This document shows positions 1 to 27,267 of a stretch of 32,000 nt of DNA, one piece after another. Made by a program: the position numbers and the translations under genes. Under the pieces are notes generated by a model. The model was not told where the DNA came from. It did no database searches and worked only from the letters and a program-made list of their open reading frames with translations. The stretch's first letter is position 1, and each line of letters begins with the position of its first letter. Origin of the DNA: Candidatus Saccharimonadota bacterium (GTDB taxonomy: Bacteria; Patescibacteriota; Gracilibacteria; Absconditabacterales; Absconditicoccaceae); NCBI GenBank assembly GCA_000503875.1, contig CP006913.1:120001-152000 (forward strand). Reading direction: 5' to 3'.

Positions 1-2900
1 AATTATACGAGGAAAATAGGGAATATGTTCCATTTTCTGGTATCTCTCAAAATATGATCAATGCCATCGTTGCGATGGAAGACCAACGTTATTGGGAGCA
101 TAGCGGACTTGATCCAATGGGTATATTAAGAGCATGAATAAATAATGTATTGCGCCCAGGCGGAGGTATGCAAGGAGCATCAACTATTTCTCAACAGCTT
201 CTCAAAAATCTTTTGTTAAATAAAGATTTTAAAAGAGAATCATTTCAAGAAAAAGTTGTAAGAAAATTAAGAGAAATACTTCTCATAGGAAAATTAAATA
301 ACGTATTAGAAGATCAAATATACAAAGAACAACCATCGATAGGAAAAAATGAACTTCATAAAGAAATGAAAGATAAGGTTCTTGAATTATATCTGAATTA
401 TATTGCTTTTTGAAATAATTCTTTTGGAGTAGAAGCTGCCTCAAAGACCTATTTTAGTAAATCAGCAAAAGACTTGGATGTATTAGAAGCTTCTGTTCTT
501 GCTTCAATACCAAAGAGTCCAACTATTTATAATCCATATAGAAATAGAGGAAAAAATATGGGATTGCTTTCTATTGTAGATCAAAATGGAGCACAAGCTG
601 CAGCAACATGAACTCTTTTGGAACAAGTACTTGCCAAAATGGCTCAATGATTAGAAAGTGTAGAAATATCAAAAGATGGTGGCTTTACAAAATCATTGGA
701 AGCTATCTCTTCATTTGTGATAACAGAATGAACAAACAACTATACTATAACATATACAATATGAAGAAAAGATTTTGCTTTGATGAGAATGTACGAAGAT
801 GATTATATTACTCAAAATGAATTAAAACAAGCATTTTTAGAATGATTAACATACGAACTTCGTAGTAATAAAGTAGAAATGTTAGCGCCACATTTTGTTC
901 AATGGGTCATTGAAGAATTAGAAAAAAAATATGATAAAGATACTTTATTTAAGGGAGGTATTATTATCAAAACAACGCTTGATTTAGAACAACAAGTACT
1001 TGCAGAAACATCTCTTGCTAATAATTTAGCAGTTCTTCAAGAAAATGGAGCAAATAATTCATCTATGATTTATTTGGATTCAATAAATGGTGATGTATTA
1101 GCTTATGTAGGTTCTATTAATTACTTTGATGAAAAAATCCAAGGACAAAATGATATGGTAAGAAGACCAAGACAATCAGGGTCTGCTATTAAACCATTTA
1201 TTTACGCGCTTGGTTTTCAGTTACTTCCTTTGACATTGGATACACCAATGTTTGATATTCCATTTAAAATAGGAAGAGATGAACCAAACAACGCTGATGG
1301 AAAATTTGAATGATTATTACCGCTTAAATATGCATTAGCACATAGTAGAAATATTCCAGCTACCAAAATGATTCTTGCATTATGATGAGAAACTGTAGCA
1401 AAACCATTTTTAAGTGATTTGTGATTGGTAGGGGTACAAGATTCTGTAGAATATTGATATACATTAGCATTGGGAGCTGCAGAAGTCACTATGTTGGATT
1501 TAGCTAATGCTTATGCTCATCTATCTACAAATCAACCAGCAGAAATAAATCCTATTTTAGAAATCAGATCAAGAGATGGTTCTTTAATTTATCAAAGAGA
1601 AGATAAAAAACAGGAAGAAGTTATTCCTTGAGGAATTAGATATCTATTATGGAATATTCTTTCAGAACCATCAAATAGATTGGCAGGATGGGTATCTAAA
1701 TTTAATGTTAAATGATTATCATTGGCATTAAAGTCAGGAACATCTAATGTAAAAACGGATAAAGGAAATCGTCCAAGAGATGGTTGGATGGCTGTATATA
1801 ATTGAAGTAAAGTTGCCTTATTTTGGGCAGGTAATGCAGATTGAACAGCCATGAATAGAAATGCTTATGGATGAACAATTCATGCAAATCCTATGAAAAG
1901 TTTTTTCACTTCACTTATGAAAAATAATTATATAACCAATGATGCAGTCAAATCTGTTGATGTAACAAGTGTTGATATTTCAAAGATATCAGGTAAATTA
2001 GCTAGTGAAAATACGCCGTCAGAGCTTGTTATAAGCTCATTGAGATATATTCACAGTCCTGCACTAGAATCAGATGCTGGAGTAAATGCATTTGAATACG
2101 ATATCTTATGTAACGGTGCACAGAGTCCAACAACACCATTGGACAGCCTCAAAAAATGATATGCTATTCAACCAACAACACTTATTCCAAGTAAAATAGA
2201 TTTAGCAGAAATAACTCAATGGCGAAAAATAGGATCAAGTTTTACAGGAATTGCACCAGAAGGATGATTTATTAGTTGAAATATAACATATAATTATCCA
2301 AATATATTTGTAGAAACACCAATCGATGTTTGTGAAGAAAGATGAAGTAAAGAAGATTTATCAATAGATGTTAATATTATTACTCCAGAGAAAAATAGAA
2401 CAGTATCCAATAAGTTTGCATTATGGTATTCTATCAATGGTGATAGAGGTATAAAATCAGTTTTAATTTTTGCTGGAGAAGACCAAATAGCTCAATTTAG
2501 TTATAATGGAAAGAACAAAAATATTAATGAACAAAAATCTATCTCTTCATCATTATCTGCTGGTAAACATACTATAGAGGTAATTGCCATAGACGCTGAA
2601 TGATATTCCAATAAAGAATCATTAGAATTAGAGATAGCTACTTCAGACAGTACGCCACCTATTATATTAGAGAGCAAAACAAATGTTCAACAATTAGAAA
2701 ATGGAAAATATCAAATTAGTATAATATTAGAAGATAACTTATCCTTTATAGAAAACGGAAAAATATCAATACCAGATAAAACACTTCTAGAATTTAAATG
2801 ACAAGCTGCGGTGTTTACTTTAGATGTATTAGTCCCAGTTACGGTTTTTGCAAAAGATGCTTACGGAAATATACTAGAAAAAACAATTACTTTACAATAA
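1..2900 (+). CDS. Class A penicillin-binding protein (GT51 transglycosylase + transpeptidase), 5' end outside window
   Basis: The frame starting at nt 3 is open to TAA at 2898-2900 when 23 in-frame TGA are read as Gly. GT51 motifs: EDQRYWEHSGLD, GASTISQQL, YLNYIAF-G-NNSFGVEAAS. Transpeptidase motifs: SGSAIKPF (SxxK), HSRN (SxN), KSGTS (KTG-like). The C-terminal ~250 aa is an extra Ig-like extension. Confidence 0.93.
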
Positions 2901-2910
2901 GATAATTAAT

Positions 2911-2942
2911 AAAAAAACTGGCAGTTATATGCCAGTTTTTTT
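2911..2942. terminator. Bidirectional intrinsic terminator between convergent genes
   Basis: A-tract, then stem ctggca (2918-2923) / tgccag (2930-2935) with a 6-nt loop, then a T-tract (2936-2942). Confidence 0.8.
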
Positions 2943-2950
2943 ATATTGTT

Positions 2951-4528
2951 TTATTTAATAATATTCGAAGGATAATTTGCATTTAAAACAACAAATGGAG
3001 TAACAATAGCAGAAGAAGTTAGAGCTATTGGTGAATAACAATTTGTTCAATCACTTCATGTTCAACTAAGTTCACAAGACCACGTAAATATATTTTCCAA
3101 ACTGATTCGTTCTTCAAAAGCGCCTGTTCCCAAAACATTATTTACTTGAGTTATTCTTCATTGACTCGGGGTTGTTGGAGTATTAAGGAATGCTAATTTT
3201 CCTAAAAGATGAACTTTGTTTTCTATTCCAAATGTTCCTAAAGCAGTATTGTTTCCAAGCAAAAGACCATTTATAACAAAGTTTCCTTTAATAAATATTC
3301 CAGAATTAGTAACGCTTGCTTCTGCTGGATATCCATCTTGATTAAAATTGGTTTTTGTTGCTACAGGATTTTTGATAAGTAGGTTTCCCCCATCAATAAA
3401 GATATCTAATGCAGGACTGTCCTTGCTCATAGTATTAAGTAAAGTAATGTTTCCATTTTTCACAATGATCGTTTTATCTTTATGAAGTGTATCGGAAAGG
3501 TTGATATCCAAATTATCCGTATTTTTATAACATAATACTTTTTCTTGATTATTAAGCGGTAGAGTTGTTGATGCACCTCCTTCGAGATAAGTTTTTCCTC
3601 TACAGAGAACCTCAGCATTCTTCTTTGCAAGGTTAATAACCGTTGCTGAGTTGATATCAGAATTGATGAGAATAGTTCTTTTTTCTAGATTTCCAAGAAG
3701 GGCTCTTTGTTCATAGATATTCGTCGCTTTTGTTAGAACAACGCTACCTTGAATAAGAATATTCCACATTGTATCTTTAGCTTGCGAGTCTCCTGTAAGA
3801 TTAACAGATCGACTTCCAGAAGAAGAATCAATACTACTTCATGTAATAAGGAAAGAATTGCTAATGCTTCATGTAGTATTAAGGTAGTCCAATAAATTTT
3901 CACTTCAAGCGATAGCTCCACCTACAAATCAAATTCAACCAACACTATCCCATAAAAATCCCAAAGGAGTAACGTTGTTGAAATATTCGAATGTATGAGC
4001 AAATTCTGAAGTATAGTAGTTTTGTTGATAATTAAGCTTAGTTCCAGCTATTATATAAGAAACTGTTCCTCACCATGTATATTCAATAACTCAGAAGATC
4101 CCATATTGATCAGCACTAGAACCGCATGAAGTATATAATCATCCTGTAATTTGAAGATTTCCATATCCTTGTCATCAAGTTGAGTTAAGAAGATCTAAGG
4201 TTTCTTTATCCAATGGCCAAAGTCTCGCTCATCTTGCGGCATTATAATAAATCCCTCTAAGTTGTTTATAACATGATTTATTTGTCCCGTTGGCAGTAAT
4301 GGTTTGTGGTGTAGAAAGAGATCTCATAGGTAACCAGAAAACTCCTCATCAAAAATCGTTTCAAGGAGAAGAAAAATGAATTTCAGAAAACTTTGATAAT
4401 AATGATGTTTGATTAAGTCCTGTAAAGTTGAGCATTAGCCCATTAAGGATATTGTATAAGAAAATTCAAACAATTATAAAAAGTATTGTTCATCCTGTAT
4501 TAGTTATAGAAAATTTTTTATATAACAT
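2951..4528 (-). CDS. Hypothetical membrane-anchored / secreted protein with beta-helix-like repeats (525 aa)
   Basis: ATG at 4528 and TAA at 2951-2953, with 20 in-frame TGA read through by my count. N-terminal hydrophobic helix GGTILFIIVGIFLYNIL. Central region has repetitive N/G/I-rich strands (NGNITLLN, IFIDGGNLLIKN, IFIKGNFVINGLLLGNN). I recognise no family. Confidence 0.72.
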
Positions 4529-4614
4529 CGAAGAAAAAAATAAATAAAAGGTATACCTATATATATAGTATATTCAAAAAAATATTTTTTGCAAATCAAC
4601 CATAAATTCTGATT

Positions 4615-4642
4615 TTTACATTTATATATTTGTGTATATAAT
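4615..4642 (+). promoter_or_regulatory. Candidate sigma70-type promoter P1 of the rRNA unit
   Basis: tttaca (4615-4620), 16-nt spacer, tataat (4637-4642). Confidence 0.5.
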
Positions 4643-4753
4643 ATGTCTAGACACTTTTGTCTACGTTTTTATTTCCATTTCATAAATTTTGCCATAAATA
4701 ATATGGCTTAGTACCTGGGAAAAAAAGAAAAGTAAAAAAAAGTCAAAAAAGTC

Positions 4754-4781
4754 TTGAAATGGAAGATTAAATTACTATAAC
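4754..4781 (+). promoter_or_regulatory. Candidate sigma70-type promoter P2 of the rRNA unit with an A-rich UP-like tract
   Basis: ttgaaa (4754-4759), 16-nt spacer, tataac (4776-4781). An A-rich tract at 4722-4750 lies upstream. A boxA-like acttaacaa sits at about 4824-4834 downstream. Confidence 0.5.
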
Positions 4782-4845
4782 ATCTCACGCAACACTTTTG
4801 GAAGAACAACTCTAGGTGTTGATGAAGCGGATACTTAACAATAAT

Positions 4846-4872
4846 ATCATATATTACATTTTTCAAAAAAAC

Positions 4873-4880
<8 letters not shown>
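4846..4880 (+). other. 5' arm of the 23S rRNA processing stem (pairs with 7798-7833)
   Basis: atcatatattacatttttcaaaaaaacaataaatc is nearly the exact reverse complement of gatttattgttttttttgaaaaatgtaatatgtgat at 7798-7833. This gives a helix of about 35 bp enclosing the 23S, an RNase III-type substrate. Confidence 0.85.
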
Positions 4881-7805
<2,925 letters not shown>

Positions 7806-7907
7806 GTTTTTTTTGAAAAATGTAATATGTGATGTTGTTGTATATAGTTTCTAGCAGATTCTATTGTATTCGAAGAGCGGTTTTATATACTAAAACCCGT
7901 CGATTTA

Positions 7908-8037
<130 letters not shown>

Positions 8038-8064
8038 TAGATGGAAGATCATTAATAGGTTTAA

Positions 8065-8082
8065 AAAGAAATAAAGTATGGC
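8065..8082 (+). other. 5' arm of the 16S rRNA processing stem (pairs with 9617-9634)
   Basis: aaagaaataaagtatggc is the exact reverse complement of gccatactttatttcttt at 9617-9634, bracketing the 16S. Confidence 0.85.
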
Positions 8083-8086
8083 TTTT

Positions 8087-9580
<1,494 letters not shown>

Positions 9581-9673
9581 AACTATAAAATTTAGAGAAC
9601 ACTTAATTACCAACCCGCCATACTTTATTTCTTTCTGAACTTATTGATCAACATTCCTTTCTACTAGGAAAAG

Positions 9674-9698
9674 TCTCATCTTCACGATGGGATTTTTT
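9674..9698 (+). terminator. Intrinsic terminator after the rRNA unit
   Basis: Stem tctcatc / gatggga (one G-U pair), loop ttcac, then tttttt. Confidence 0.75.
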
Positions 9699-9722
9699 GT
9701 TTTTAACTATTAATATAGTATA

Positions 9723-10271
9723 ATGCATTTAGTAAACGATATATCTGCATTTGTAGATCAAAAAAAATGACTTATTAATATGGTTGTTGATATTCCAAAA
9801 TGATCAAATAATAAGTACGAATACGATCATCATCTATGATGTTTCAAACTTGATCGTGTAATTCATCATTCGATGTATTATCCTTGTGATTATGGATTTA
9901 TTCCACAGACGTTATCAGAAGATGGAGATCCTTGTGATATCTGTTTATTGGTTACTAATCCAACATTTACTTGATGTTTAATTAAGGCAAGACCAATCTG
10001 AATCTTATATACGATAGATAATGCTGGAAACGATCCAAAAATAATAGCTGTTCCTGCAGATGATATCGACCCAAGATGGAGTGAAGTTCATTGTATTGAT
10101 GATTTAGGACATCATATGAAAGAGGAATTATTACTCTTATTTAAACAAATAAAAATATTGGAACATAATAAATATGATAAAATTGAAGTGATTTGATTTT
10201 GAAATGTTTTGGAAGCACAAGAAGAAATAATAATATCAGTACAAAGATTTAAAGATCAACAAAAAAAATAA
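9723..10271 (+). CDS. ppa: Inorganic pyrophosphatase, family I (182 aa)
   Basis: Reads [15 protein letters not shown]...LDRV...[24 protein letters not shown]...[13 protein letters not shown]. Six in-frame TGA by my reading, including the invariant Gly of the IPKGS motif (9801-9803). TAA at 10269-10271. Confidence 0.93.
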
Positions 10272-10280
10272 ATAAATAGG

Positions 10281-10307
10281 TCTCACCTTTATGGTGGGAT
10301 TTTTTTA
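10281..10307 (+). terminator. Intrinsic terminator of ppa
   Basis: Stem tctcacc / ggtggga, loop tttat, then a T-tract. Confidence 0.75.
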
Positions 10308-10312
10308 TAAAT

Positions 10313-10344
10313 AAAAAAGCTCCGGATATTCAGGAGCTTTTAAA
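10313..10344 (-). terminator. Intrinsic terminator of the minus-strand surface-protein gene
   Basis: On the minus strand: stem agctcc / ggagct followed by tttttt. Confidence 0.65.
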
Positions 10345-10351
10345 TAATTAT

Positions 10352-11113
10352 TTACTGTGCAGATTCTGTTATAACCTGCGAAATAGTTTCAACACAACCG
10401 TATTGATTAATAACTTGGCAGCTATATACACCAGCACCAATACCTGTTAAAGATGATTCCATTCCATAGGTTTTCATTCCACTTGACCATGAATAAAAAT
10501 CTCCAGGACTACCACTAATAGTAATTGAACCATCATTTTGACCACAGCCAGAAACATCTTTATGAGATACAAATGCTATTGGTAATGGATTAACGGTAAC
10601 TTCAATACTATTTGTTATTCCAATAGCCATTCCACTTTTCATTTGAGCAACAACAATGTCTCCGTTTCTCAAATTATTTGTTGTATAGTTTTTTTGTGAA
10701 TCTAAAGAGGTCACTATAATACCGTTCACTAAGAATTCTACTTCAGGAGCTGATCCTATCACACTAAAAGTAACATATTCTCCAGAACAAAAGGTATTAT
10801 CATTATCAGAAGACACAAGCGTACCATAAGGAGCAGCAGGGTCACTTATTGTCTGTGAAACGATAGTAGAATCACCTAATTCATTAGTAATTACACACGT
10901 ATAGGTACCGCTATACAAACCAGATGCTGTAGGTGTATATTGGACTGGAACAGTATTCCATGAATAACTTCCACCATCACCAGCTCCATTTGCAGTAATA
11001 CTTCCATTATTGATACCGAAATCAGTTGGGTTTGTGAAAGATACTATAACTTGTGCGTTAGCACTACTGATTGCAAAAGCAATCACTATCAAAAAATTCA
11101 CAATAGTTTTCAT
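10352..11113 (-). CDS. Secreted surface protein with SprB-type repeats and an Ig-like domain (253 aa)
   Basis: Signal peptide MKTIVNFLIVIAFAISSANA. Two repeats of the form NNGSITANGAGDGGSYSW...YTCVITN and CGQNDGSITISGSPGDFYSW...YSCQVINQYGC resemble SprB repeats of Bacteroidetes adhesins. The ORF is uninterrupted with no TGA codon. TAA stop. Confidence 0.8.
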   Translation of the reverse strand: MKTIVNFLIVIAFAISSANAQVIVSFTNPTDFGINNGSITANGAGDGGSYSWNTVPVQYTPTASGLYSGTYTCVITNELGDSTIVSQTISDPAAPYGTLVSSDNDNTFCSGEYVTFSVIGSAPEVEFLVNGIIVTSLDSQKNYTTNNLRNGDIVVAQMKSGMAIGITNSIEVTVNPLPIAFVSHKDVSGCGQNDGSITISGSPGDFYSWSSGMKTYGMESSLTGIGAGVYSCQVINQYGCVETISQVITESAQ

Positions 11114-11158
11114 ATTATTGATTTTTAGGTTTTTTTATTTTCTTTTGTTTGCAGATAT

Positions 11159-11186
11159 ATTATATATAAAAAAAGAAAAAAGTCAA
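11159..11186 (-). promoter_or_regulatory. Candidate promoter of the SprB-repeat gene
   Basis: Minus strand: ttgact (11186-11181), 16-nt spacer, tataat (11164-11159). Confidence 0.5.
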
Positions 11187-11242
11187 TAGTAGTTGTTTGT
11201 AAGAAAATTATAGATAGTATTTAATTAAAATTCAGATTTAAA

Positions 11243-12091
11243 TTATCCTTCCTTTTTTACGTACAACAAATCGCTCTTAAATAAAAAGAAACTTAATAAA
11301 AAGAAAAGAAAAATAACCAAAGGGACGGTAACATATGATAGTTGATATTCTAATCCGATATTATATGTTCCATGTAAAGCGACTCATCCAACGATACTTA
11401 TAAAAAGTGCTACTGGTCGAAGGATTTTTTGTTTCAGCGCGTAATATAATGCTCCGATAGTTGTAGTTGCTACGACATGCAGTAAGGCGCTAATTAATCA
11501 TCTACCCACGATGAGACCAAGGATATTTCCTGATCAATCTGCCAATGAAAATAAATAAAAGAGATTTTCAATCAGACTAAATCCAAGTCCCAAGAGGACA
11601 CAAAAGAAAATACCATTTTTGATTCCATGGGAACTGTCTCCAAGTAGGGTTGTGCTCGAGGTATATTTCATATATTCTTCAGCGTATGCAGTGATAATAT
11701 AATATAAGATCAATGAATTGATTCAAAGCAGTATTCCTCCAAAGCTTATCATAAAAAAGAAAATAGCACCGCCCAAAAATACCTGGATAATAAATGATGC
11801 CCATTTACGAAATATCAATAATAGTATTCCCAAAATAGCAGCACAATATCATCAGAATATTAAAAATGATTTCAATGTTAGCTGTTCCATAATATTATAT
11901 ATTTTATAGGAAACCGAATGAGAAATGAGATATTTATATGAAAACAATCCACCCACCAAAATAATTCAGATTAAAAGTATTTTCCAAATATATTGTATTT
12001 TAAGTGAATGTTTGCCAAAAGCTTGATTTATAAGCCAAATCCATATATAAAGAATACATATACTTGCAAAAATAGTCCAAAAAATATGCAT
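11243..12091 (-). CDS. PrsW-family intramembrane metalloprotease (282 aa)
   Basis: Polytopic membrane protein with AEEYMKY (EExxK), GFSLIENLFY, ALLHVVATTTIGALYY and HGTYN motifs typical of PrsW-like proteases. ATG at 12091, TAA at 11243-11245, about 7 TGA read through. Confidence 0.8.
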
Positions 12092-12095
12092 ATAA

Positions 12096-12404
12096 CTAAC
12101 GATACAAAGCTAAATATTTTGCGGCTTGTTCCTGAATAAAAAGGCTAATCTCAGGGATATTTTCTTCTCAACAAATAACAAATAATTCTTGTGCGGTCGA
12201 ACCTTTGCTCATAATGCATTTAATTCAACTCGGCGTAGGATAAGATATTTTAAATAATAATTCTGAACTTCATTTCTGCTGTCTATTGATTCTTCACGGG
12301 ATAATCCTATGGATATGAGGATGTTTTTCAATCGTTAAAAGAAGCTTTTTGAACTCGGGTAAAATATGATGTTCGGTTTTTACTTTCTGAAAAGTTACCT
12401 TCAT
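12096..12404 (-). CDS. Small conserved hypothetical protein (102 aa), possibly DUF2103-like
   Basis: ATG at 12404, TAG at 12096-12098, only 4 nt from the PrsW start (operon). Contains an HRIIPGRINRQQKG motif. The family assignment is from memory only. Confidence 0.6.
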
Positions 12405-12506
12405 AGGTGTATGGGGAATAAAAGAATATTCTATCTATAAAAAATAGTTGAGCAAAAACAAGAAAAAGCCACCTTTGCAGATGACTTTCTATAATTGGGG
12501 TTAGTC

Positions 12507-13406
12507 TTAGAAATTTCTAAAAATATCTTGCAATCTTCTTCTTTCTTCCTCTTCTTCTTGTTTTGCTCTGAGTTCTTTTTCTGTATCTTTTAATTTGCTT
12601 TCAGTCAAGAAGATAAGTTTATTGATTTTTTCTATTACTTGAGATTTTTTCTTGGTATCTTTTATAAGATCAGATTCTTCAAATAACAAAACATCATCAA
12701 GAAATATTTCAAAAAGATGAGATTCTGGATTTAATCAAAGTTTTAATTCGTTGAATGTTGTTTCATCCTCTTCTTTATCTGTTTCAATTCTTTTTACATG
12801 AACTTCATTTTGTTCGTTTAATCCGAATTGATATAATACAGAAACTTTATCGTTGTTAGATCAAATAATTTCCAAAATTTCTCCATCTTTTAATCTAAGA
12901 AGTGAAGTAAGTTCTGAAACATTGTCCAATAAATTGGCAAATTTTTGTTGAATATCTGAAACTGGTTCTCCAAGTGGTTCTTCAATAGGTTCTTCTTCAA
13001 CAACTACTGGTTCTCCAAGTGGTTCTTCTTCAACAACTACTGGTTCTCCAAGTGGTTCTTCAACAGGTTCTTCAATAGGTTTTTCTTCAATAATTACTGG
13101 TTCAGGGGTTGATTCAACAACGGGTGTTGGTTCAATAACAGTTTCTGTTGGAAAAACTATTTCAGGGATTTCTTCAACGGCATTTACTTGTTCAACAATA
13201 GGAGATTCTTGTGGAATAACATATCCATCAAATGGACTAGAAGGAGAAACTTCTGTTGCAGGTTCTTCCGTAGTTGTCTTTTCAACTTGTAAAGGTCAAA
13301 ACATAGAAGGATCGTGAATTATTTCTTCTGGATTACCACCAAAAACGCCTCATCCTTGTTGTGTTGGAGGTGTTGGTTGTCCAGGTTGGAATTGTGTATC
13401 AGTCAT
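12507..13406 (-). CDS. Acidic Pro/Glu-rich repeat protein (299 aa), hypothetical
   Basis: ATG at 13406, TAA at 12507-12509. The N-terminal half is P/E/V-rich with EEPLGEPVVVEE repeats. The C-terminal ~130 aa looks globular and ends in a charged helix KELRAKQEEEEERRRLQ. Confidence 0.7.
12961..13100. repeat. Imperfect in-frame tandem repeats inside the acidic protein gene
   Basis: The unit actggttctccaagtggttcttc recurs at 12961, 13006 and 13039 (spacing 45 and 33 nt), with a degenerate copy near 13093. Confidence 0.85.
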
Positions 13407-13532
13407 TTTTACTAATTAGTGATTAAAGACTACTACTAGTATAATCAGAAGATTCTCTTTTGTCAAATTTTTAGAAACTTTATCAGATTTATTTGAAAAT
13501 CATTTGTAATTAATGAGTAAACTGCTATATTC

Positions 13533-13577
13533 ATGGTGCGTAATTGACTACGCATCATTTATTTTTTGTTTTTTTGG
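13533..13577 (+). promoter_or_regulatory. Leader hairpin plus U-rich tract immediately upstream of the RRM protein start codon
   Basis: A 10-bp stem atggtgcgta (13533-13542) / tacgcatcat (13549-13558), loop attgac, followed by ttattttttgttttttt and then ATG at 13581. Confidence 0.6.
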
Positions 13578-13580
13578 TTA

Positions 13581-13910
13581 ATGGAAGAAAATTTTGTTAT
13601 CAGTCAGACAAAACTATTTGTCGGAGGACTAGATTGGAGTATCAGAGGTAAAGACCTCAACGAAGAATTCTCTAAATTTGGTGAAGTAGTATTTGCTAGA
13701 GTAAATCTAGATAGAGAAAACAGAAACAGAAGTAAGGGATTTGGTTTCGTAGTATTTGCAAACCCAGAAGACGCTGCAAAAGCACAAGCTGAAATGAACA
13801 ATAAAGAAGTAAAAGGAAGAGCTATTAGAGTAGATTTCGCAAAAGAAAATCCTGAAAAAATGAACAAAGAACATGCAAATGGAAACGAATCAGAAGCAAT
13901 TGCTGAATAA
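13581..13910 (+). CDS. RRM-domain RNA-binding protein (109 aa)
   Basis: RNP2 is LFVGGL and RNP1 is KGFGFVVF. No TGA codons. I prefer ATG at 13581 over the TTG at 13566 used by the ORF track. Confidence 0.88.
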   Translation: MEENFVISQTKLFVGGLDWSIRGKDLNEEFSKFGEVVFARVNLDRENRNRSKGFGFVVFANPEDAAKAQAEMNNKEVKGRAIRVDFAKENPEKMNKEHANGNESEAIAE

Positions 13911-13937
13911 TTAAAATATAGTATTCATATATACAAA

Positions 13938-13971
13938 ACATCTTTACACTAGTTGTAAGGGTGTTTTTTTT
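13938..13971 (+). terminator. Intrinsic terminator of the RRM gene
   Basis: An 11-bp stem acatctttaca / tgtaagggtgt (two G-U pairs), loop ctagt, then a T-tract. Confidence 0.8.
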
Positions 13972-13976
13972 ATGTC

Positions 13977-14004
13977 TTGAAAGTATAAGAAAAAAGAATA
14001 TGAT
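13977..14004 (+). promoter_or_regulatory. Candidate promoter of the structured RNA / RNHCP leader
   Basis: ttgaaa (13977-13982), 16-nt spacer, tatgat (13999-14004). Confidence 0.55.
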
Positions 14005-14010
14005 AAATCT

Positions 14011-14158
14011 ACGACTAAAGGGTTAGTAACGGTTAAGAATCACTTCTTCGTCCTTTACTCTGGAGGCCGAGAAATCTCTAGTCCCAGACTAGAGTGAGCC
14101 ATCCACCTTACGTATTGGAGAAAAACTTGATTGACTACGGCTCTTTGGTTTTTTTTGT
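14011..14158 (+). ncRNA. Candidate structured RNA (sRNA or riboswitch-like leader), class not recognised
   Basis: It lies between a promoter-like element and a U-tract (14149-14158) and is noticeably more GC-rich than its flanks. It has a perfect 8-bp hairpin ctctagtc-cca-gactagag (14076-14094), extended by tggaggc (14061-14067) / gcc-a-tcca (14098-14105). A closing helix joins ctaaagggtt (about 14016-14025) to ggctctttgg (about 14139-14148). Confidence 0.5.
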
Positions 14159-14173
14159 TCAGAAAAATATTCC

Positions 14174-14485
14174 ATGAAAAAAATAAACGAATCATTTATT
14201 TGTACTCATTGTGGCAAAGAAATTGCTCAAGCAGCCAAGACATGTAGAAATCACTGTCCCAGCTGTTTTTGTAGTATACACGTAGATGCTAATATTCCAG
14301 GGGACAGAGCAGCGGGTTGCGATTCAAAAATGTTTCCTGTTGATTATAAACTCCTTAATTCTGATTATAAAATTCTTTTTCAATGTGTGAAATGTGGCAA
14401 ACAACATTGGAATAAAAGAGCTATTGATGACGAAATTACAGCTTTGCCAGAACTAATTAAAGCGTATAAAAGATTATTTAACTAA
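14174..14485 (+). CDS. RNHCP domain-containing zinc-ribbon protein (103 aa)
   Basis: Literal CRNHCPSC motif plus CTHCGK and CVKCGK cysteine pairs. Uninterrupted ORF with a TAA stop. Confidence 0.85.
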   Translation: MKKINESFICTHCGKEIAQAAKTCRNHCPSCFCSIHVDANIPGDRAAGCDSKMFPVDYKLLNSDYKILFQCVKCGKQHWNKRAIDDEITALPELIKAYKRLFN

Positions 14486-14516
14486 AAAAACTGATGAGAA
14501 GATCATCAGTTTTTTT
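14484..14516. terminator. Bidirectional intrinsic terminator
   Basis: A-tract, then stem ctgatga (14491-14497) / tcatcag (14503-14509), then a T-tract. Confidence 0.8.
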
Positions 14517-14527
14517 AGTGATTATTT

Positions 14528-15241
14528 TTAATAAAGTCCTACAACATTTTGCTCTTCTATCTTGGTGATTTTTCCATTGTTTAAAGTTATCCAATAGGGG
14601 ATTTTGTTAAATCGAGTATAGTCTTTTACGTCATCTTCAGTAAAAAATTCTAGAAAACAAGGTAATAAAATCTTCTTTAATTTTCTGATTTCTCCATCAA
14701 CTAAATAGTTTACAAAATAGCTATATATTTCTACAGTATCAGTAAGCATAAAAGTTATTGTTTTTTTGCTTTCATTTTTGAAACAGATTTCAAGTCACTC
14801 ACATTCTTCTTTGGGAAGAATTATAATTTCATCAAAAGAAATCTTAGCAATAGAATTATCTTTGAAAACATTAGTAATATATCCAATTTTTTTGAGAATA
14901 GTTGTGGGAGTAGGATTTATTTCTGTTGTAATTTCTTCTGTCTTATTTGTTGGTGAAATAGTGTCTTTTGGCTTAGAAATAGTTTCTTCTTGTATATTTT
15001 GATTTTCCGCTATTTCTTCATTGCTTCAACTCAAAGCAAGTTCTTCCTCTCATAAAAGTGAAATGGGCTCAAGTAAATTAAATTGGTCTTTTATCTCAGT
15101 AATCTCTTTTTTTAATTCCAAAATTTTTTCATTATTTTCATGTTGTTTATCAAGAATATTTCTTACAGGAAAACGCCACAAAATAATGAATCATGCAGTC
15201 AGGAAAAGAAGAGAAATAATTAAGATAATCCATCTTTTCAT
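14528..15241 (-). CDS. Membrane-anchored hypothetical protein (237 aa)
   Basis: ATG at 15241, TAA at 14528-14530. Four TGA join the 73-aa track ORF to an upstream segment. N-terminal TM helix WIILIISLLFLTAGFIILW, then a charged coiled region. Confidence 0.7.
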
Positions 15242-17066: not shown

Positions 17067-17100
17067 GCTATTTTGGTATTTTATTTACTAATTATAATCT

Positions 17101-17574
17101 ATGAAAAAAATTTCTTTGCTAGTAATTCTTACTTTTTCTTTTTTACTTGTAGGATGTGGGCGTGAAAAAATTGATAATCAAGAAATCGCAAATCAAGAGG
17201 AAGCTAGCGTAAAAACAGAAAATGATTTTAGTATGTCAGATTGTATGAAATGATGTGAACTGATGCAAAATAAAGACGCAGATAAAGATCAAATATTTAA
17301 AAATTGTTCAGCTTTATGTGAAGCAGGTAAGGCGATAGATAATAATGATGCAAGTGGATGTGAAAAATCAGAAGGAATGATGAAAGATGCTTGTTATTCT
17401 AGTGTTGCTTATGAAAAAGCAAAACCAGATCTCTGTAAAAAAATTAATGATGTAGCACTTCAATTTGGCTGTTATGCTAGTATTGCAGAAAAAACAAAAA
17501 ATCCAGATGTTTGTGATGATATCAAAGATAGTATGTGGAATGAATCTTGTATGCAAGCAGCAAAAGCTGAATAA
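17101..17574 (+). CDS. Cysteine-rich lipoprotein (157 aa), hypothetical
   Basis: Signal peptide with lipobox LLVGC. One TGA is read through (MK-G-CELM). The mature part has 12 further Cys, arranged as six consecutive Cys pairs. Confidence 0.75.
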
Positions 17575-23923: not shown

Positions 23924-24523
23924 ATGTATAACCCGTATGATTTTTATTTTAAAAAAGCAAAACAAGTCTGATATAAAGCACGTAGTGCATTTAAATTGGA
24001 TGAAATTCAAGACAAATTCCATCTGTTTGATAAAACCACGAAACACATCATTGATATTGGCTGTGCGCCATGAAGCCGACTACAGTATGCCATTTCTCAG
24101 TCACAAAAACATCAAGTAAAAGATTATAAAATAGTCTGATTTGATATCAAAGTAGTTACGCTCAATCTTCCCGGGTTAGTTACTTATCAACAAGACGTTA
24201 CGGATCAAGTAAAAGTGAGAGAGCTTCTGGGGGAGCAGGGAATCACCCAGGTAGACCTTATCCAATCAGACATGGCCCCCAATACTACAGGTATCAAAGA
24301 CTTAGACGCAATGAGATCTATGGGATTGATCCAAGATACGCTATGGATGTATAAAGAAATACTTAAACCTGAAGGAAAGTTTGTGATCAAAGTATTTATG
24401 TGACCATGATTCCAGGAATTTGTGGCTGATCTGAAAGCTCATTTTGGATGAAACCATATCAAAATATTTAAGCCCAAAGCCTGCAGATCAGAATCAAAGG
24501 AAACGTATATTGTTAAAATATAG
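23924..24523 (+). CDS. rlmE: 23S rRNA 2'-O-ribose methyltransferase RlmE/FtsJ (199 aa)
   Basis: Reads YKARSAFKLDEI, DIGCAP-G-S (TGA at 24071-24073 at the SAM-loop Gly), SDMAPNTTG and KVF. Six TGA read through. The track ORF at 23916 is in the wrong frame. TAG at 24521-24523. Confidence 0.9.
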
Positions 24524-24551
24524 GAGTGGATTATTTATAAAACAAACGAAA

Positions 24552-24577
24552 AACCCCGCTTTACAGCAGGGTTTTTT
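24552..24577. terminator. Intrinsic terminator between convergent genes
   Basis: Stem aaccccgc / gcagggtt (one mismatch), loop tttaca, with a T-tract on plus and an A-tract upstream. Confidence 0.7.
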
Positions 24578-24608
24578 CTATATGAGTTTTTGTTTGTCTA
24601 AGGAAGAT

Positions 24609-25454
24609 TTATTTCATCAAGTTTTGAATTTCTGTATCAAATTTTTCAAATGGATATGCTCAATTTATTATAACATATTTTCCTGTTTGTTTATCGAGAA
24701 TTACATTTCCAGGAGTTCCATTGATTCCAAATATTGTACGAGCTTCTTCTAAGATACCATCAATCTTTGATTTGAATTCTTGATTGTTTACACAAGAAGT
24801 AAATTTTGAAGAATTAAGTCCAATTTCTTTTGCGAGAGCAAGTACATTATTGTCATCAAAACTTTCTTGTAGAAAAGCCTTGTCTAAGTATTTGTAGAAA
24901 GCATCACTTCCTCCAACTTTACCAGCACATTCAATAGCTTCAGCACCTTTAAATGCTGTAGGATGAAGTTGTACTAATGGCATATTTTTGAAGATAAGCG
25001 CTACATCATTTGGATATTTTTCCGCAACTTTTTGTAATGTTTGATCATTGTGATGTCTTTTACAGAAAGGACAAAGTATATCAGAATATTCGAATATTAC
25101 GAATCTAGCATCTTTGTTTCCTTTTATCAAAGTGTCTTTTAGGATAGCATCCATAGTTGCTTGATCAAGAGTAGTTCCCGTAGTAGCTCCATCAGTAGTT
25201 TCGCTAGTAGCAGCGCCTCCTTCCATAGATCAAAGAACTTGAGCTAATGTTTGTGCTTGTTGGCTTTTGAATGATTCGCTAGTATACAGTTTTTCTATCA
25301 TAGCGAAATTTTCTGATCCTCCAGCTTTAAGTGTTTCTACCCATAATGCATCTCTCTTAAAAAATGCTATATATACAGCAAGAATAAGATTAATAACCAA
25401 AAGAGATACACCAATAGTCTTTAGAGAATTTGTATTTAATATGTGTTTATTCAT
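24609..25454 (-). CDS. Membrane-anchored DsbA-like thiol:disulfide oxidoreductase with an N-terminal GGSENF module (281 aa)
   Basis: Two track ORFs are joined by TGA at 25227-25229. A further TGA at 24660-24662 extends the frame to TAA at 24609-24611. TM helix IGVSLLVINLILAVYIAFF, then ETLKAGGSENFAMIEKLY, a T/G-rich linker, and a thioredoxin fold with active site CPFC. Confidence 0.85.
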
Positions 25455-25482
25455 TGTTTGTGTATATGAAAAGATAAAGTAA

Positions 25483-25713
25483 TTATTTAACTCAAAGTGA
25501 TTCTAAACCTTGTTGTATTCAATCTTTTTGTTGAGCAACATATGATGGATGTTGGTATAATTGTTGCACAAGAGTAAAATTTTCTGATCAACCAGATTTC
25601 ATTATTTCCAATGAAACAGCATCTTTTTTGAAAAAGGAGATATACAATAAAAAGATAGCGTTTAATGCAAGAATAATAACGAGAATAGTATCAAAATGTT
25701 TAGTGATTTTCAT
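25483..25713 (-). CDS. Small membrane-anchored GGSENF-module protein (76 aa), paralog of the DsbA N-terminus
   Basis: ATG at 25713, TAA at 25483-25485, three TGA read through. TM helix ILVIILALNAIFLLYISFF followed by LEIMKSG-G-SENFTLVQQLY. It is missed by the standard-code ORF track. Confidence 0.65.
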
Positions 25714-25741
25714 AGAAATAGGGGATAGAAAAATAAATTAA

Positions 25742-26158
25742 TTATTGTTGTGGTTGTGCTTGTTGAACTTGTTCCATTTGTTCAGGAGTCAATTGAACAT
25801 TTTCTGCTGAAGGTGTAGCTTGTTGTGGTTGAGACAATATTTGAAGTGCTTGTTCTAATTGTTGTCTTTGTTGCATTTTGTATCCTTCAGTTTGGAATAC
25901 TTGTTTTAATAATCCATAATTTTCTGATCCACCAGCTCTTAATGCTTCCATTTTTGTTTGATTAATGAGAACAAGAGCCAATAATACAGTATTTACTACC
26001 ATAAGAATAAGCATAAAAACTTTTCTAACTTTGATATTGTTGCAGCAAGGTGTTGAACAACAAGATTCTGAAGAAGAAATCTTTCTTGTTTCTACAGTGA
26101 TTGTTGGTTTTGCAATTACTTTTGCAGGAGCTTTTGTAATAGGTTTTTTAACTACCAT
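25742..26158 (-). CDS. Membrane-anchored GGSENY-module protein with cytoplasmic CCxxxCC motif and Gln-rich tail (138 aa)
   Basis: ATG at 26158 (the track uses TTG at 26197). N-terminal KKPITKAPAKV...SSSESCCSTPCCNN, TM helix FMLILMVVNTVLLALVLI, then MEALRAGGSENYGLLKQVF and a Q-rich C-terminus. Confidence 0.72.
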   Translation of the reverse strand: MVVKKPITKAPAKVIAKPTITVETRKISSSESCCSTPCCNNIKVRKVFMLILMVVNTVLLALVLINQTKMEALRAGGSENYGLLKQVFQTEGYKMQQRQQLEQALQILSQPQQATPSAENVQLTPEQMEQVQQAQPQQ

Positions 26159-26325
26159 GATAATAAATAATAAAATGTAAAATAAACTACCAATCAAAAT
26201 ATAAATTTACGGAGGAAAAACAAGTTAATACACAATTAGAAAAGCATTTTGGATTGACTTTAAAACGATAATGTTTATAATAAAATATCAAATAAAAACA
26301 AAAAAAACCAAAAAAATAAAAACGT

Positions 26326-27267
26326 ATGAAGAAATTTATTTTGTTTTTGGTAATACTTATTACAATAGGTATTCCAAGTAGAGGTCAGTTTAAAAAGCTA
26401 GGACTTCTTCAAAATTATGGATCGCTTGTAGATGGTTTAGAACCAATGAAGCCATTGCCAGCTAAAGAAAAAGCATTTTATATGCCATGGATGGATACTG
26501 TCGTTTCTATTCATAGAGAGTTAGCTGCCTTTCTTGAGGTCGATTTTCCTTTGGATACCACAATGGTAATAGTTGATAAAGACAAAAAAATATCAAAGGA
26601 AGATTTAGAACTTATTGCAAGAATTAGTCTTATAAAAGACTTTCCAAAAAAAGAAATTGCTTGGAAAGGCTGGAAAGAAAAAGAAAAAAACAAAAGAGCT
26701 GCTTACGAAAAACAAAGATTATCCTTGATAAAAAGTACATTTGAAAAAGCAAATGCAGATTCAAATCTTACTATGATGGGATCAACCTTGGAATTGATGG
26801 TCTTTTATTATCAAAATAGATCTTTGTTATCTACAAAAAAAGCTTATGAAGAATATGGGGAAGAATTTGTTTTGATGAGAGCTCAATTTGATAAAAGGTT
26901 AAAGAACTGCTTGGAAAAAAATTCCTGTTCATATCAAGATGTTAGTAATATGTTTGGTATAGCAGTTAATGCTTGGCCAAACACAAATCTAGCGTATGAT
27001 GTTTTACAAGGATGGTATGGACAACAATTATCGTACCTTTTTCGTGGCAATGATCCTTTGCAAGAAATCACTTTTGTTGCTACCACCGAATGTTTTCTTT
27101 CTCTTCTTTATTTGTATAATATTGAAGGACGAAAAGGATCACCCGAATTAGTAAGAGCATATGAAAATCTTATGAAATTAAATTATCCTTCATGGGAAAA
27201 ACAGATTGTAAAAACTAATATCAAAAGGTATCTAAAAGAAGAGATGGATGTACACCCTTCTCAATAG
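26326..27267 (+). CDS. Secreted hypothetical protein (313 aa)
   Basis: Uninterrupted ORF with signal peptide MKKFILFLVILITIGIPSRG. No TGA codons. I recognise no domain. Confidence 0.72.
   Translation: MKKFILFLVILITIGIPSRGQFKKLGLLQNYGSLVDGLEPMKPLPAKEKAFYMPWMDTVVSIHRELAAFLEVDFPLDTTMVIVDKDKKISKEDLELIARISLIKDFPKKEIAWKGWKEKEKNKRAAYEKQRLSLIKSTFEKANADSNLTMMGSTLELMVFYYQNRSLLSTKKAYEEYGEEFVLMRAQFDKRLKNCLEKNSCSYQDVSNMFGIAVNAWPNTNLAYDVLQGWYGQQLSYLFRGNDPLQEITFVATTECFLSLLYLYNIEGRKGSPELVRAYENLMKLNYPSWEKQIVKTNIKRYLKEEMDVHPSQ

Follow-up and report, generated by a model that had tools for sequence, protein, structure and literature searches.

A juxtamembrane module shared by a DsbA-family oxidoreductase and two small paralogous membrane proteins of an Absconditabacterium

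What might explain why a bacterium keeps, side by side on one strand, three genes for single-pass membrane proteins that share the same short block of sequence directly behind the membrane helix, only one of them with a catalytic domain? The genes, here called A, B and C, lie at 24609-26158 on the minus strand, in the order C-B-A, of a window of 32,000 nucleotides (the whole stretch of DNA that was analyzed) from the genome of SR1 RAAC1_SR1_1. A encodes a membrane-anchored DsbA-family oxidoreductase, B little but an anchor, and C an anchor preceded by a cysteine-rich N-terminus. The enzyme is of a known kind; what is new, and restricted to one lineage, is the module that follows the transmembrane (TM) helix in all three proteins, together with the C-(B)-A arrangement of the genes. 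We suggest, tentatively, that the module and the TM helix serve to dock these proteins to one another.

A conserved module between membrane helix and linker

The three genes come into view as intact reading frames in the order C-B-A under genetic code 25, in which TGA encodes glycine. A table 11 reading was rejected because it breaks A, B and C at TGA codons and because TGA falls at invariant glycine columns. The content of long open reading frames (ORFs) in the window, counted over stop-to-stop frames of at least 100 amino acids, rises about threefold, from 4964 amino acids under table 11 to 14816 with TGA as a sense codon. The second glycine of the GGSEN motif of B is itself a TGA codon, in a column that is an invariant glycine elsewhere in the module family, and the two invariant glycine positions of the module appear as 'W' in 17-23% of database entries, as code 4 translation of TGA gives. 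TGA at invariant glycine columns thus supports its assignment to glycine and, with the 'W' entries, identifies the organism as an Absconditabacterium using code 25, the code that the original prediction had assumed. Read in this way, the original prediction of three minus-strand paralogous genes, each with a TM helix and the shared block, is borne out, and the peptide blocks quoted for A, B and C are exact. Its further statement that each gene begins with the TM helix is right for A and B and wrong for C, where 46 amino acids, basic and cysteine-rich, precede the helix.

The module is about 40 amino acids long, lies directly after the TM helix in A, B and C, and has the pattern E-x-L-K-x-GG-x-[ED]-N-[FYM]…L-Y…[YF]-K-x-QQ…L. 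A hidden Markov model (HMM) of 41 columns, containing no TM residues and built solely from modules of other lineages, found exactly these three proteins among the 387 six-frame ORFs of the window (A, E = 7.9e-21; B, 1.3e-17; C, 3.8e-16), the next best ORF standing at 0.12, and B and C match each other directly by BLASTP (E = 6e-11). In weighted consensus frequencies, with the first glycine of the GG pair as position 0, the glycines at 0 and +1 are invariant if 'W' is read as TGA-encoded glycine, and the asparagine at +4 is present in 100%. Strongly conserved as well are L or I at +25 (98%), E at -5 (96-97%), E or D at +3 (96%), Y or F at +17 (94%), F, Y or M at +5 (91% combined), Y at +12 (about 90%), K at -2 (85-88%) and the glutamine pair at +20 and +21 (82-96%).

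The AlphaFold model of A places three short helices after the TM helix, with the invariant GG as the turn between helices 1 and 2, and continues with a disordered linker and the DsbA fold; in the model of C the TM helix is continuous with helix 1, and the same GG turn leads into two more helices. Helical-wheel mapping gives each module helix a conserved hydrophobic stripe adjoining a conserved polar stripe, the polar residues being E-5/K-2, E+3/Q+10 and Q+20/Q+27/Q+31. Helix 3 is conserved over about 200 degrees, which exceeds the needs of self-packing. Because a disordered linker separates it from the DsbA domain in the model of A, the module lies outside the catalytic fold; the linkers of A orthologs are of low complexity and variable length. 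The models thus depict the module as a distinct conserved three-helix unit between the TM helix and the disordered linker.

Not only does B lack any Pfam or NCBIfam match at E up to 1, but the module profile also yields only chance matches in the PDB (E = 0.55 at best); with the full-length A profile, all PDB matches begin behind the module, at position 86 or later. The 38 C-type members produced only sub-threshold noise, namely DUF1514 (best E = 0.005, below the 25-bit cut-off) and WBP-1; neither was accepted as the identity of the module, these matches being driven by TM and cysteine composition. With no counterpart in Pfam, NCBIfam or PDB, the module is a previously undescribed domain family, as had been suspected when it was first noticed. 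When 1.84 billion representative proteins were searched exhaustively with HMMER, 138 matched at E up to 1e-3; of these, P0141 (ankyrin repeats, 18 matched stretches) and P0190 (FG-GAP-like repeats) were set aside as repeat-driven false positives. The family amounts to about 136 clusters at 50% identity which, with 12 loci related to that of the window, settles the question of its conservation outside this genome. The source names of matches are SR1, Absconditabacteria or Gracilibacteria, in-frame TGA is present in all related loci examined, and the module is restricted to TGA-recoding lineages. Three metagenome-assembled genomes (loci L003, L004 and L005) are labeled 'uncultured Candidatus Peribacteria', yet they have in-frame TGA in conserved genes and an SR1-type C-B-A cluster, and for these reasons the label is probably wrong. 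Among the matches listed for full-length A, 80 of 120 homologs carry the module, and more distant Patescibacteria DsbA proteins have a TM helix and a low-complexity spacer without it. The module is therefore not a general, already annotated N-terminal region of DsbA, an objection that the original prediction had itself foreseen.

The catalytic domain of A is a bona fide, ordinary DsbA fold. The thioredoxin fold with a CPFC active site, proposed from the sequence to lie behind module and spacer, is upheld by Pfam matches to Thioredoxin_4 (PF13462; E = 6e-18, 66 bits against a cut-off of 23.2) and DSBA (PF01323; E = 8e-11, 42.4 bits against a cut-off of 25.6). CPFC occupies amino acids 128-131, and C128, P129, C131, C176, C221, T247 and P248 are invariant in 82 A-family sequences. 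The model of A has a mean predicted local distance difference test (pLDDT) score of 88.8, exceeding 95 over amino acids 100-280, the DsbA domain. Foldseek relates this model with probability 1.0 to DsbA2, alpha-DsbA, ScsC, MdbA and BdbD, with a template modeling score (TM-score, normalized to target) of up to 0.85 to DsbA-class structures, which combine a thioredoxin fold with an inserted helical domain. Among PDB sequences the A-family profile finds P. aeruginosa DsbA2 (4N30, E = 1e-28), and also ScsC proteins, 4PWO, Wolbachia alpha-DsbA and BdbD. P0014, a protein of the SR1 RAAC1_SR1_1 record that is listed by NCBI as 'Sodium/proton antiporter', has exactly the sequence of A; this name is a misannotation, the real identity being a membrane-anchored DsbA-family oxidoreductase. 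A cleavable signal peptide was considered and rejected, since the hydrophobic helix extends over 24 residues and inspection revealed no AxA-type cleavage site. By its TM anchor, DsbA domain, CxxC motif and similarity to MdbA, A appears to be an MdbA-like membrane-anchored oxidoreductase, and it may oxidize exported proteins, pilins among them. Three DsbA homologs, P0095, P0097 and P0100, have an odd, partly duplicated architecture: a cysteine-containing N-terminus, a TM helix, a degenerate module-like stretch, an additional piece similar to the C-terminal end of a DsbA domain, and then a complete DsbA domain.

Paralogous anchors: a proposed assembly and its alternatives

Why should one module be present in several neighboring genes? 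The C-B-A arrangement is found at 6 loci (the window and L001-L005) and C-A at 5 (L008, L009, L010, L012 and L013), with A alone at L006/L007 and L011; module genes are thus adjacent in 11 of 13 distinct loci, and no conserved third family stands next to them in any of the 13. The module is fused to or adjoins DsbA in every locus examined, in agreement with the proposal that it is a membrane-proximal extracytoplasmic element tied to a DsbA system. In the natural fusion P0206, a C-type cysteine-rich N-terminus, TM helix, module and DsbA are joined in one chain, P0080 and P0084 are similar, and P0226 carries two tandem modules before DsbA, again in one chain. An asparagine in the middle of a TM helix is a classical driver of TM helix association, and such an asparagine is aligned in 20 of 21 A, B and C sequences. 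It is found in 148 of 186 module proteins versus 11 of 40 module-less DsbA anchors, a comparison without phylogenetic independence. L006 and L011 suggested that the asparagine is lost together with the partner gene, but L013 contradicts this, since A there lacks the asparagine yet has a C partner.

Ratios of nonsynonymous to synonymous substitution rates (dN/dS) against the closest orthologs are 0.24-0.26 (A), 0.19-0.26 (B) and 0.32-0.45 (C), and all three genes are under purifying selection. B consists of a TM helix and module alone, yet it keeps its length of 76 amino acids in more than 10 clusters and is selected; TM helix and module thus have a function of their own. In the lineage of the window B belongs to an old separate clade, with 42-48% identity to A; in three other lineages its identity to the A of the same genome rises to 69-77%, B groups with that A, and the A and B nucleotide tracts there are near-identical across the TM helix and helix 1. 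In L002 (2663-4038) and L004 (4064-5435) these tracts are near-identical over TM helix and helix 1 and divergent after, and the proportion of synonymous differences (pS) between A and B within a genome is 0.43-0.52, versus 0.60-0.87 between orthologs. Together, the low within-genome pS and the near-identical tracts indicate that the anchors of A and B have been homogenized by gene conversion in these two loci.

The C protein differs from the others on the opposite side of the membrane. Its predicted cytoplasmic part has a C-type signature, consisting of MxVKK, a K/T/A/P-rich stretch, P[TS]V[TH]VETKK[ILM]S and 2-4 cysteines directly before the TM helix; the ATG at 26158 is supported as start codon by the orthologs, which all begin with MxVKK. 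In the AlphaFold model the N-terminus has a pLDDT below 50 (predicted template modeling score 0.30 for the model), and both N-terminus and tail are predicted to be disordered. No Pfam or NCBIfam family matched this N-terminus when the 38 C-type members were scanned individually. C-type modules form one ancient clade. The exact C protein is absent from a database of 5.8 billion proteins, the best match being 94% identical and from another sample; since that database does contain the A and B proteins of this genome, gene C has probably gone uncalled in the public record.

Adjacent multiple modules, the selected unit-only B, the fusions of C with A and the homogenized A and B anchors point together to paralogs that work together, and mutual binding is most simply the form that this would take, the modules and TM helices then binding each other and not a third party. 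The explanation that we prefer, although we give it somewhat less than an even chance, is that the module and the asparagine-bearing TM helix act as a protein-protein docking unit close to the membrane, by which A, B and C assemble into one hetero-oligomeric complex. The single-pass proteins would associate via their TM helices and modules, through contacts between the asparagine-bearing helices and between the conserved polar faces of the modules. Such a complex would keep the DsbA/MdbA-type oxidoreductase flexibly tethered immediately outside the membrane, with the linker leaving the DsbA domain free to range through the space over the membrane, and would couple it to C, whose basic N-terminus with its cysteine cluster would face the cytoplasm. 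Multiplicity, fusions, selection on B, the TM asparagine, the polar stripes, gene conversion, the disordered linker and the precedent of ScsC and BcfH all count in favor of assembly. Several observations count the other way. The statistic on the TM asparagine lacks phylogenetic independence, and the residue is missing from some distant A-types that keep a C partner (L013). In two lineages (L006/L007 and L011) a module-bearing A has no partner gene nearby, so that one protein is enough for the module to function, possibly by forming homo-oligomers or by binding some other partner. Gene conversion of neighboring paralogs can be neutral, and in the extended Foldseek alignments with ScsC and BcfH the root mean square deviations are 8-15 Å and the stalk shows no homology.

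The main rival, which we consider rather unlikely but far from negligible, is that A, B and C are each brought, independently of one another, to a common site, the module localizing or docking them to a partner that is no paralog: the Sec/YidC export site, for instance, the machinery that assembles type IV pili, or a polymer of the envelope. Conserved exposed stripes of invariant polar and aromatic residues (E, N, Y, Y/F and QQ) would suit such a partner, as would the solitary module-bearing A genes of L006 and L011 and the proposal that MdbA-like oxidoreductases of the candidate phyla radiation (CPR) fold type IV pilins (PMC6744442). However, no conserved third gene accompanies the cluster in 13 loci, and independent recruitment leaves unexplained why B, a TM helix and module alone, is kept beside A and homogenized with it, and why proteins with tandem modules and C-A fusions exist. 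It is very unlikely that the module is a structured spacer or stalk without specific binding, and B and C duplicated leftovers of the 5' end of A. The grouping of B with the A of the same genome in three lineages is consistent with repeated partial duplication, and the module does lie between a TM helix and a low-complexity linker; on the other hand, A, B and C are all under purifying selection, C-type modules are an ancient clade with its own conserved cytoplasmic motif, N+4 is conserved in 100% and several other positions in more than 90%, and generic Patescibacteria DsbA proteins make do with a plain low-complexity spacer.

How, then, would the DsbA domain be reoxidized? No VKOR, DsbB, CcdA or MauE family is found in the 32-kb window or the 12 related loci, which extends to the whole window the earlier remark that no DsbB or VKOR is nearby, and we found nothing specific on DsbA or VKOR of Absconditabacteria in the literature. 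The original prediction had allowed the module to be a redox relay. This part of it falls, since cysteine is the consensus residue in 0 of 46 module columns and occurs in none of the module sequences inspected, and since there is no recognizable cofactor motif; the module is thereby excluded as a thiol relay, and the disordered linker of the AlphaFold model keeps the catalytic domain apart. Docking, also among the roles proposed at the outset, is best compatible with the evidence, which speaks neither for nor against the third of those roles, substrate recruitment. The cysteines of C, however, are predicted to lie in the cytoplasm, on the opposite side of the membrane from the module, and A, B and C could be imagined as a DsbB/VKOR-independent redox or signaling relay, in which the C cysteine cluster, as a cytoplasmic thiol or metal center, is coupled via TM helix and module to the redox state of DsbA and would reoxidize, regulate or sense it in quinone-poor, TGA-recoding CPR bacteria. 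If true, this would be a new kind of DsbA partner. The absence of the four reoxidase families from these loci, the conserved cytoplasmic cysteine pairs directly before the TM helix of C and, in some lineages, the fusion of the cysteine-rich N-terminus to the DsbA chain itself would fit. Nevertheless, we rate a relay the least probable of the explanations, because module and TM helices have no cysteine, no obvious route for electrons leads through a single TM helix, disorder is predicted for the C N-terminus, a reoxidase may lie elsewhere in the 1.18-Mb genome, and some DsbA proteins need no dedicated reoxidase, that of S. aureus being an example.

The locus and its features

The genes are separated by gaps of 28 nucleotides each (C/B and B/A), the gene upstream of the cluster is divergent, and the FtsJ/RlmE methyltransferase gene downstream is convergent. 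The terminator behind A (Table 1) has no second terminator-like counterpart within 24300-26500. With a sole terminator and neighbors oriented in this way, C-B-A looks like a self-contained transcription unit.

Table 1. Features of the C-B-A locus, in window coordinates (aa, amino acids).
Feature	Position	Strand	Details and basis
Gene A, 281 aa: TM helix, module, linker, DsbA domain	24609..25454	-	Table 25 translation
A TM helix, aa 8-31, mid-helix Asn N22	25362..25433	-	AlphaFold helix 8-31; Asn alignment
A module, aa 36-77, three short helices 36-43, 47-58 and 60-77	25224..25349	-	AlphaFold, pLDDT about 70-89; independent HMM
A linker, aa 78-97, Thr/Gly/Ala-rich, flexible	25164..25223	-	pLDDT <50 at residues 78-90
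A DsbA-class thioredoxin domain, aa 98-281	24612..25163	-	Pfam, PDB and Foldseek matches; CPFC at 25062-25073
Gene B, 76 aa: nothing beyond TM helix and module	25483..25713	-	Identical to NCBI P148_SR1C00001G0142, SR1 RAAC1_SR1_1 hypothetical protein
B TM helix with mid-helix Asn N18	25630..25689	-	Translation and Asn alignment
B module LEIMKSGGSENFTLVQQLYQHPSYVAQQKDGIQQGLESL, G42 TGA-encoded	25495..25611	-	Independent HMM
Gene C, 138 aa: basic N-terminus (predicted cytoplasmic), Cys cluster, TM helix, module, Gln/Pro-rich tail	25742..26158	-	Table 25 translation
C N-terminal basic stretch with PTITVETRKIS (predicted cytoplasmic)	26063..26158	-	V22, E23 and T24 at least 90% conserved in 38-sequence C alignment
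C juxtamembrane Cys cluster CCSTPCC	26042..26062	-	C34 and C39 at least 90% conserved in 38-sequence C alignment
C TM helix, aa 47-65, mid-helix Asn N56	25964..26020	-	Model helix 38-74; Asn alignment
C module, aa 70-109, MEALRAGGSENYGLLKQVFQTEGYKMQQRQQLEQALQILS	25832..25951	-	Independent HMM; model helices 78-89 and 91-109 after GG turn
Intrinsic terminator	24549..24576	-	12-bp stem then T-run, 33 nt past stop of A

Elsewhere in the window, two genes encode cysteine-containing exported proteins. The lipoprotein at 17098-17574 (plus strand) has the lipobox LLVGC, after which come 10 more cysteines arranged in a repeated pattern; it matches nothing in Pfam and is a plausible substrate of the DsbA system. 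The protein encoded at 10352-11134 (minus strand) is secreted, with a signal peptide, several similar cysteine motifs such as G-x-Y-x-C-x-[VI]-x-N and immunoglobulin-like matches that are all sub-threshold; it is possibly a disulfide-bonded surface protein. The ribosomal RNA (rRNA) genes on the plus strand (23S, 4873-7807; 5S, 7915-8031; 16S, 8085-9580) run in the order 23S-5S-16S over 4873-9580, permuted relative to the usual 16S-23S-5S, and a minus-strand protein gene, not 16S, precedes the 23S gene.

Comparison with known systems

Oxidative folding in bacteria without DsbB, VKOR and a respiratory quinone pool is an acknowledged gap, and a 2026 preprint on MauE notes that gaps remain. CPR bacteria, which live as episymbionts or predators, rely on pili and surface proteins to do so, and the families enriched in them include an MdbA-like oxidoreductase (PMC6744442). 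In the SR1/Gracilibacteria branch the DsbA enzyme has been given a lineage-specific juxtamembrane module and up to two conserved accessory single-pass proteins, one with a predicted cytoplasmic cysteine cluster. Should A, B and C assemble, they would represent a new architecture of a DsbA holo-complex and, as proteins of 76 to 281 amino acids, a small and tractable target; the weight of the finding would rise sharply if the trio assembles and the genomes lack any DsbB, VKOR or MauE. In practical terms, a new domain family is defined, the misannotation of A is corrected and an apparently uncalled gene, C, is flagged.

The closest counterpart of A as a whole is MdbA of Actinomyces oris and Corynebacterium diphtheriae, together with the CPR-enriched MdbA-like family fam000318, for which a role in the oxidative folding of pilins and other exported proteins has been proposed (Meheust et al. 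2019; PMC6744442). Like A, these proteins have one N-terminal anchor, a linker, a DsbA fold with CxxC and a Thr-cisPro loop, and a monoderm-type envelope around them, and A matches the C. diphtheriae DsbA/MdbA structure 4PWO with E = 6e-17 and a Foldseek probability of 1.0. Unlike A, MdbA and the generic Patescibacteria homologs have no module between TM helix and linker, and no paralogous anchor-only genes. VKOR is the known reoxidase of MdbA and is adjacent in CPR genomes in 88 of 750 cases (PMC6744442); whereas VKOR often adjoins MdbA-like CPR proteins, none adjoins A in the window or the 12 related loci.

The best sequence and fold matches to the catalytic domain of A are P. aeruginosa DsbA2 (4N30) and Wolbachia alpha-DsbA1/2 (3F4R, 6EEZ), with E = 1e-28 and TM-scores of 0.72-0.79 (normalized to target). 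A second, structural disulfide is reported for the DsbA2/alpha-DsbA class, and the invariant C176 and C221 of the A family are compatible with it. These proteins, however, are soluble and periplasmic with cleaved signal peptides, and they have neither the module nor the TM anchor and paralogous partners of A.

The plan of A, a helical N-terminal element followed by a flexible linker and a thioredoxin/DsbA domain, is reminiscent of trimeric PmScsC (4XVW/5ID4), CcScsC (7RGV) and BcfH (7JVE) and of dimeric DsbC and DsbG, in which the helical element serves oligomerization, and whole-chain Foldseek alignments of the A model with ScsC and BcfH extend over 233-293 columns. The N-terminal part of A nevertheless has no sequence similarity to those of ScsC, BcfH or DsbC, the PDB profile matches starting only behind the module. 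ScsC, BcfH, DsbC and DsbG are soluble homo-oligomers made from one gene, whereas the module is membrane-anchored, has three helices and occurs in up to three paralogous genes, one of them catalytic, whose products would form the oligomer.

Small bitopic proteins of the FtsB/FtsL/DivIC type use a polar TM residue and a juxtamembrane helix to drive the assembly of hetero-oligomers. A, B and C have no sequence relationship to them (no Pfam match) and belong to another biological context, and the analogy is a functional one only. The likeness lies in the mid-TM asparagine and the juxtamembrane helices that are conserved in A, B and C, through which these three proteins may assemble in a comparable manner.

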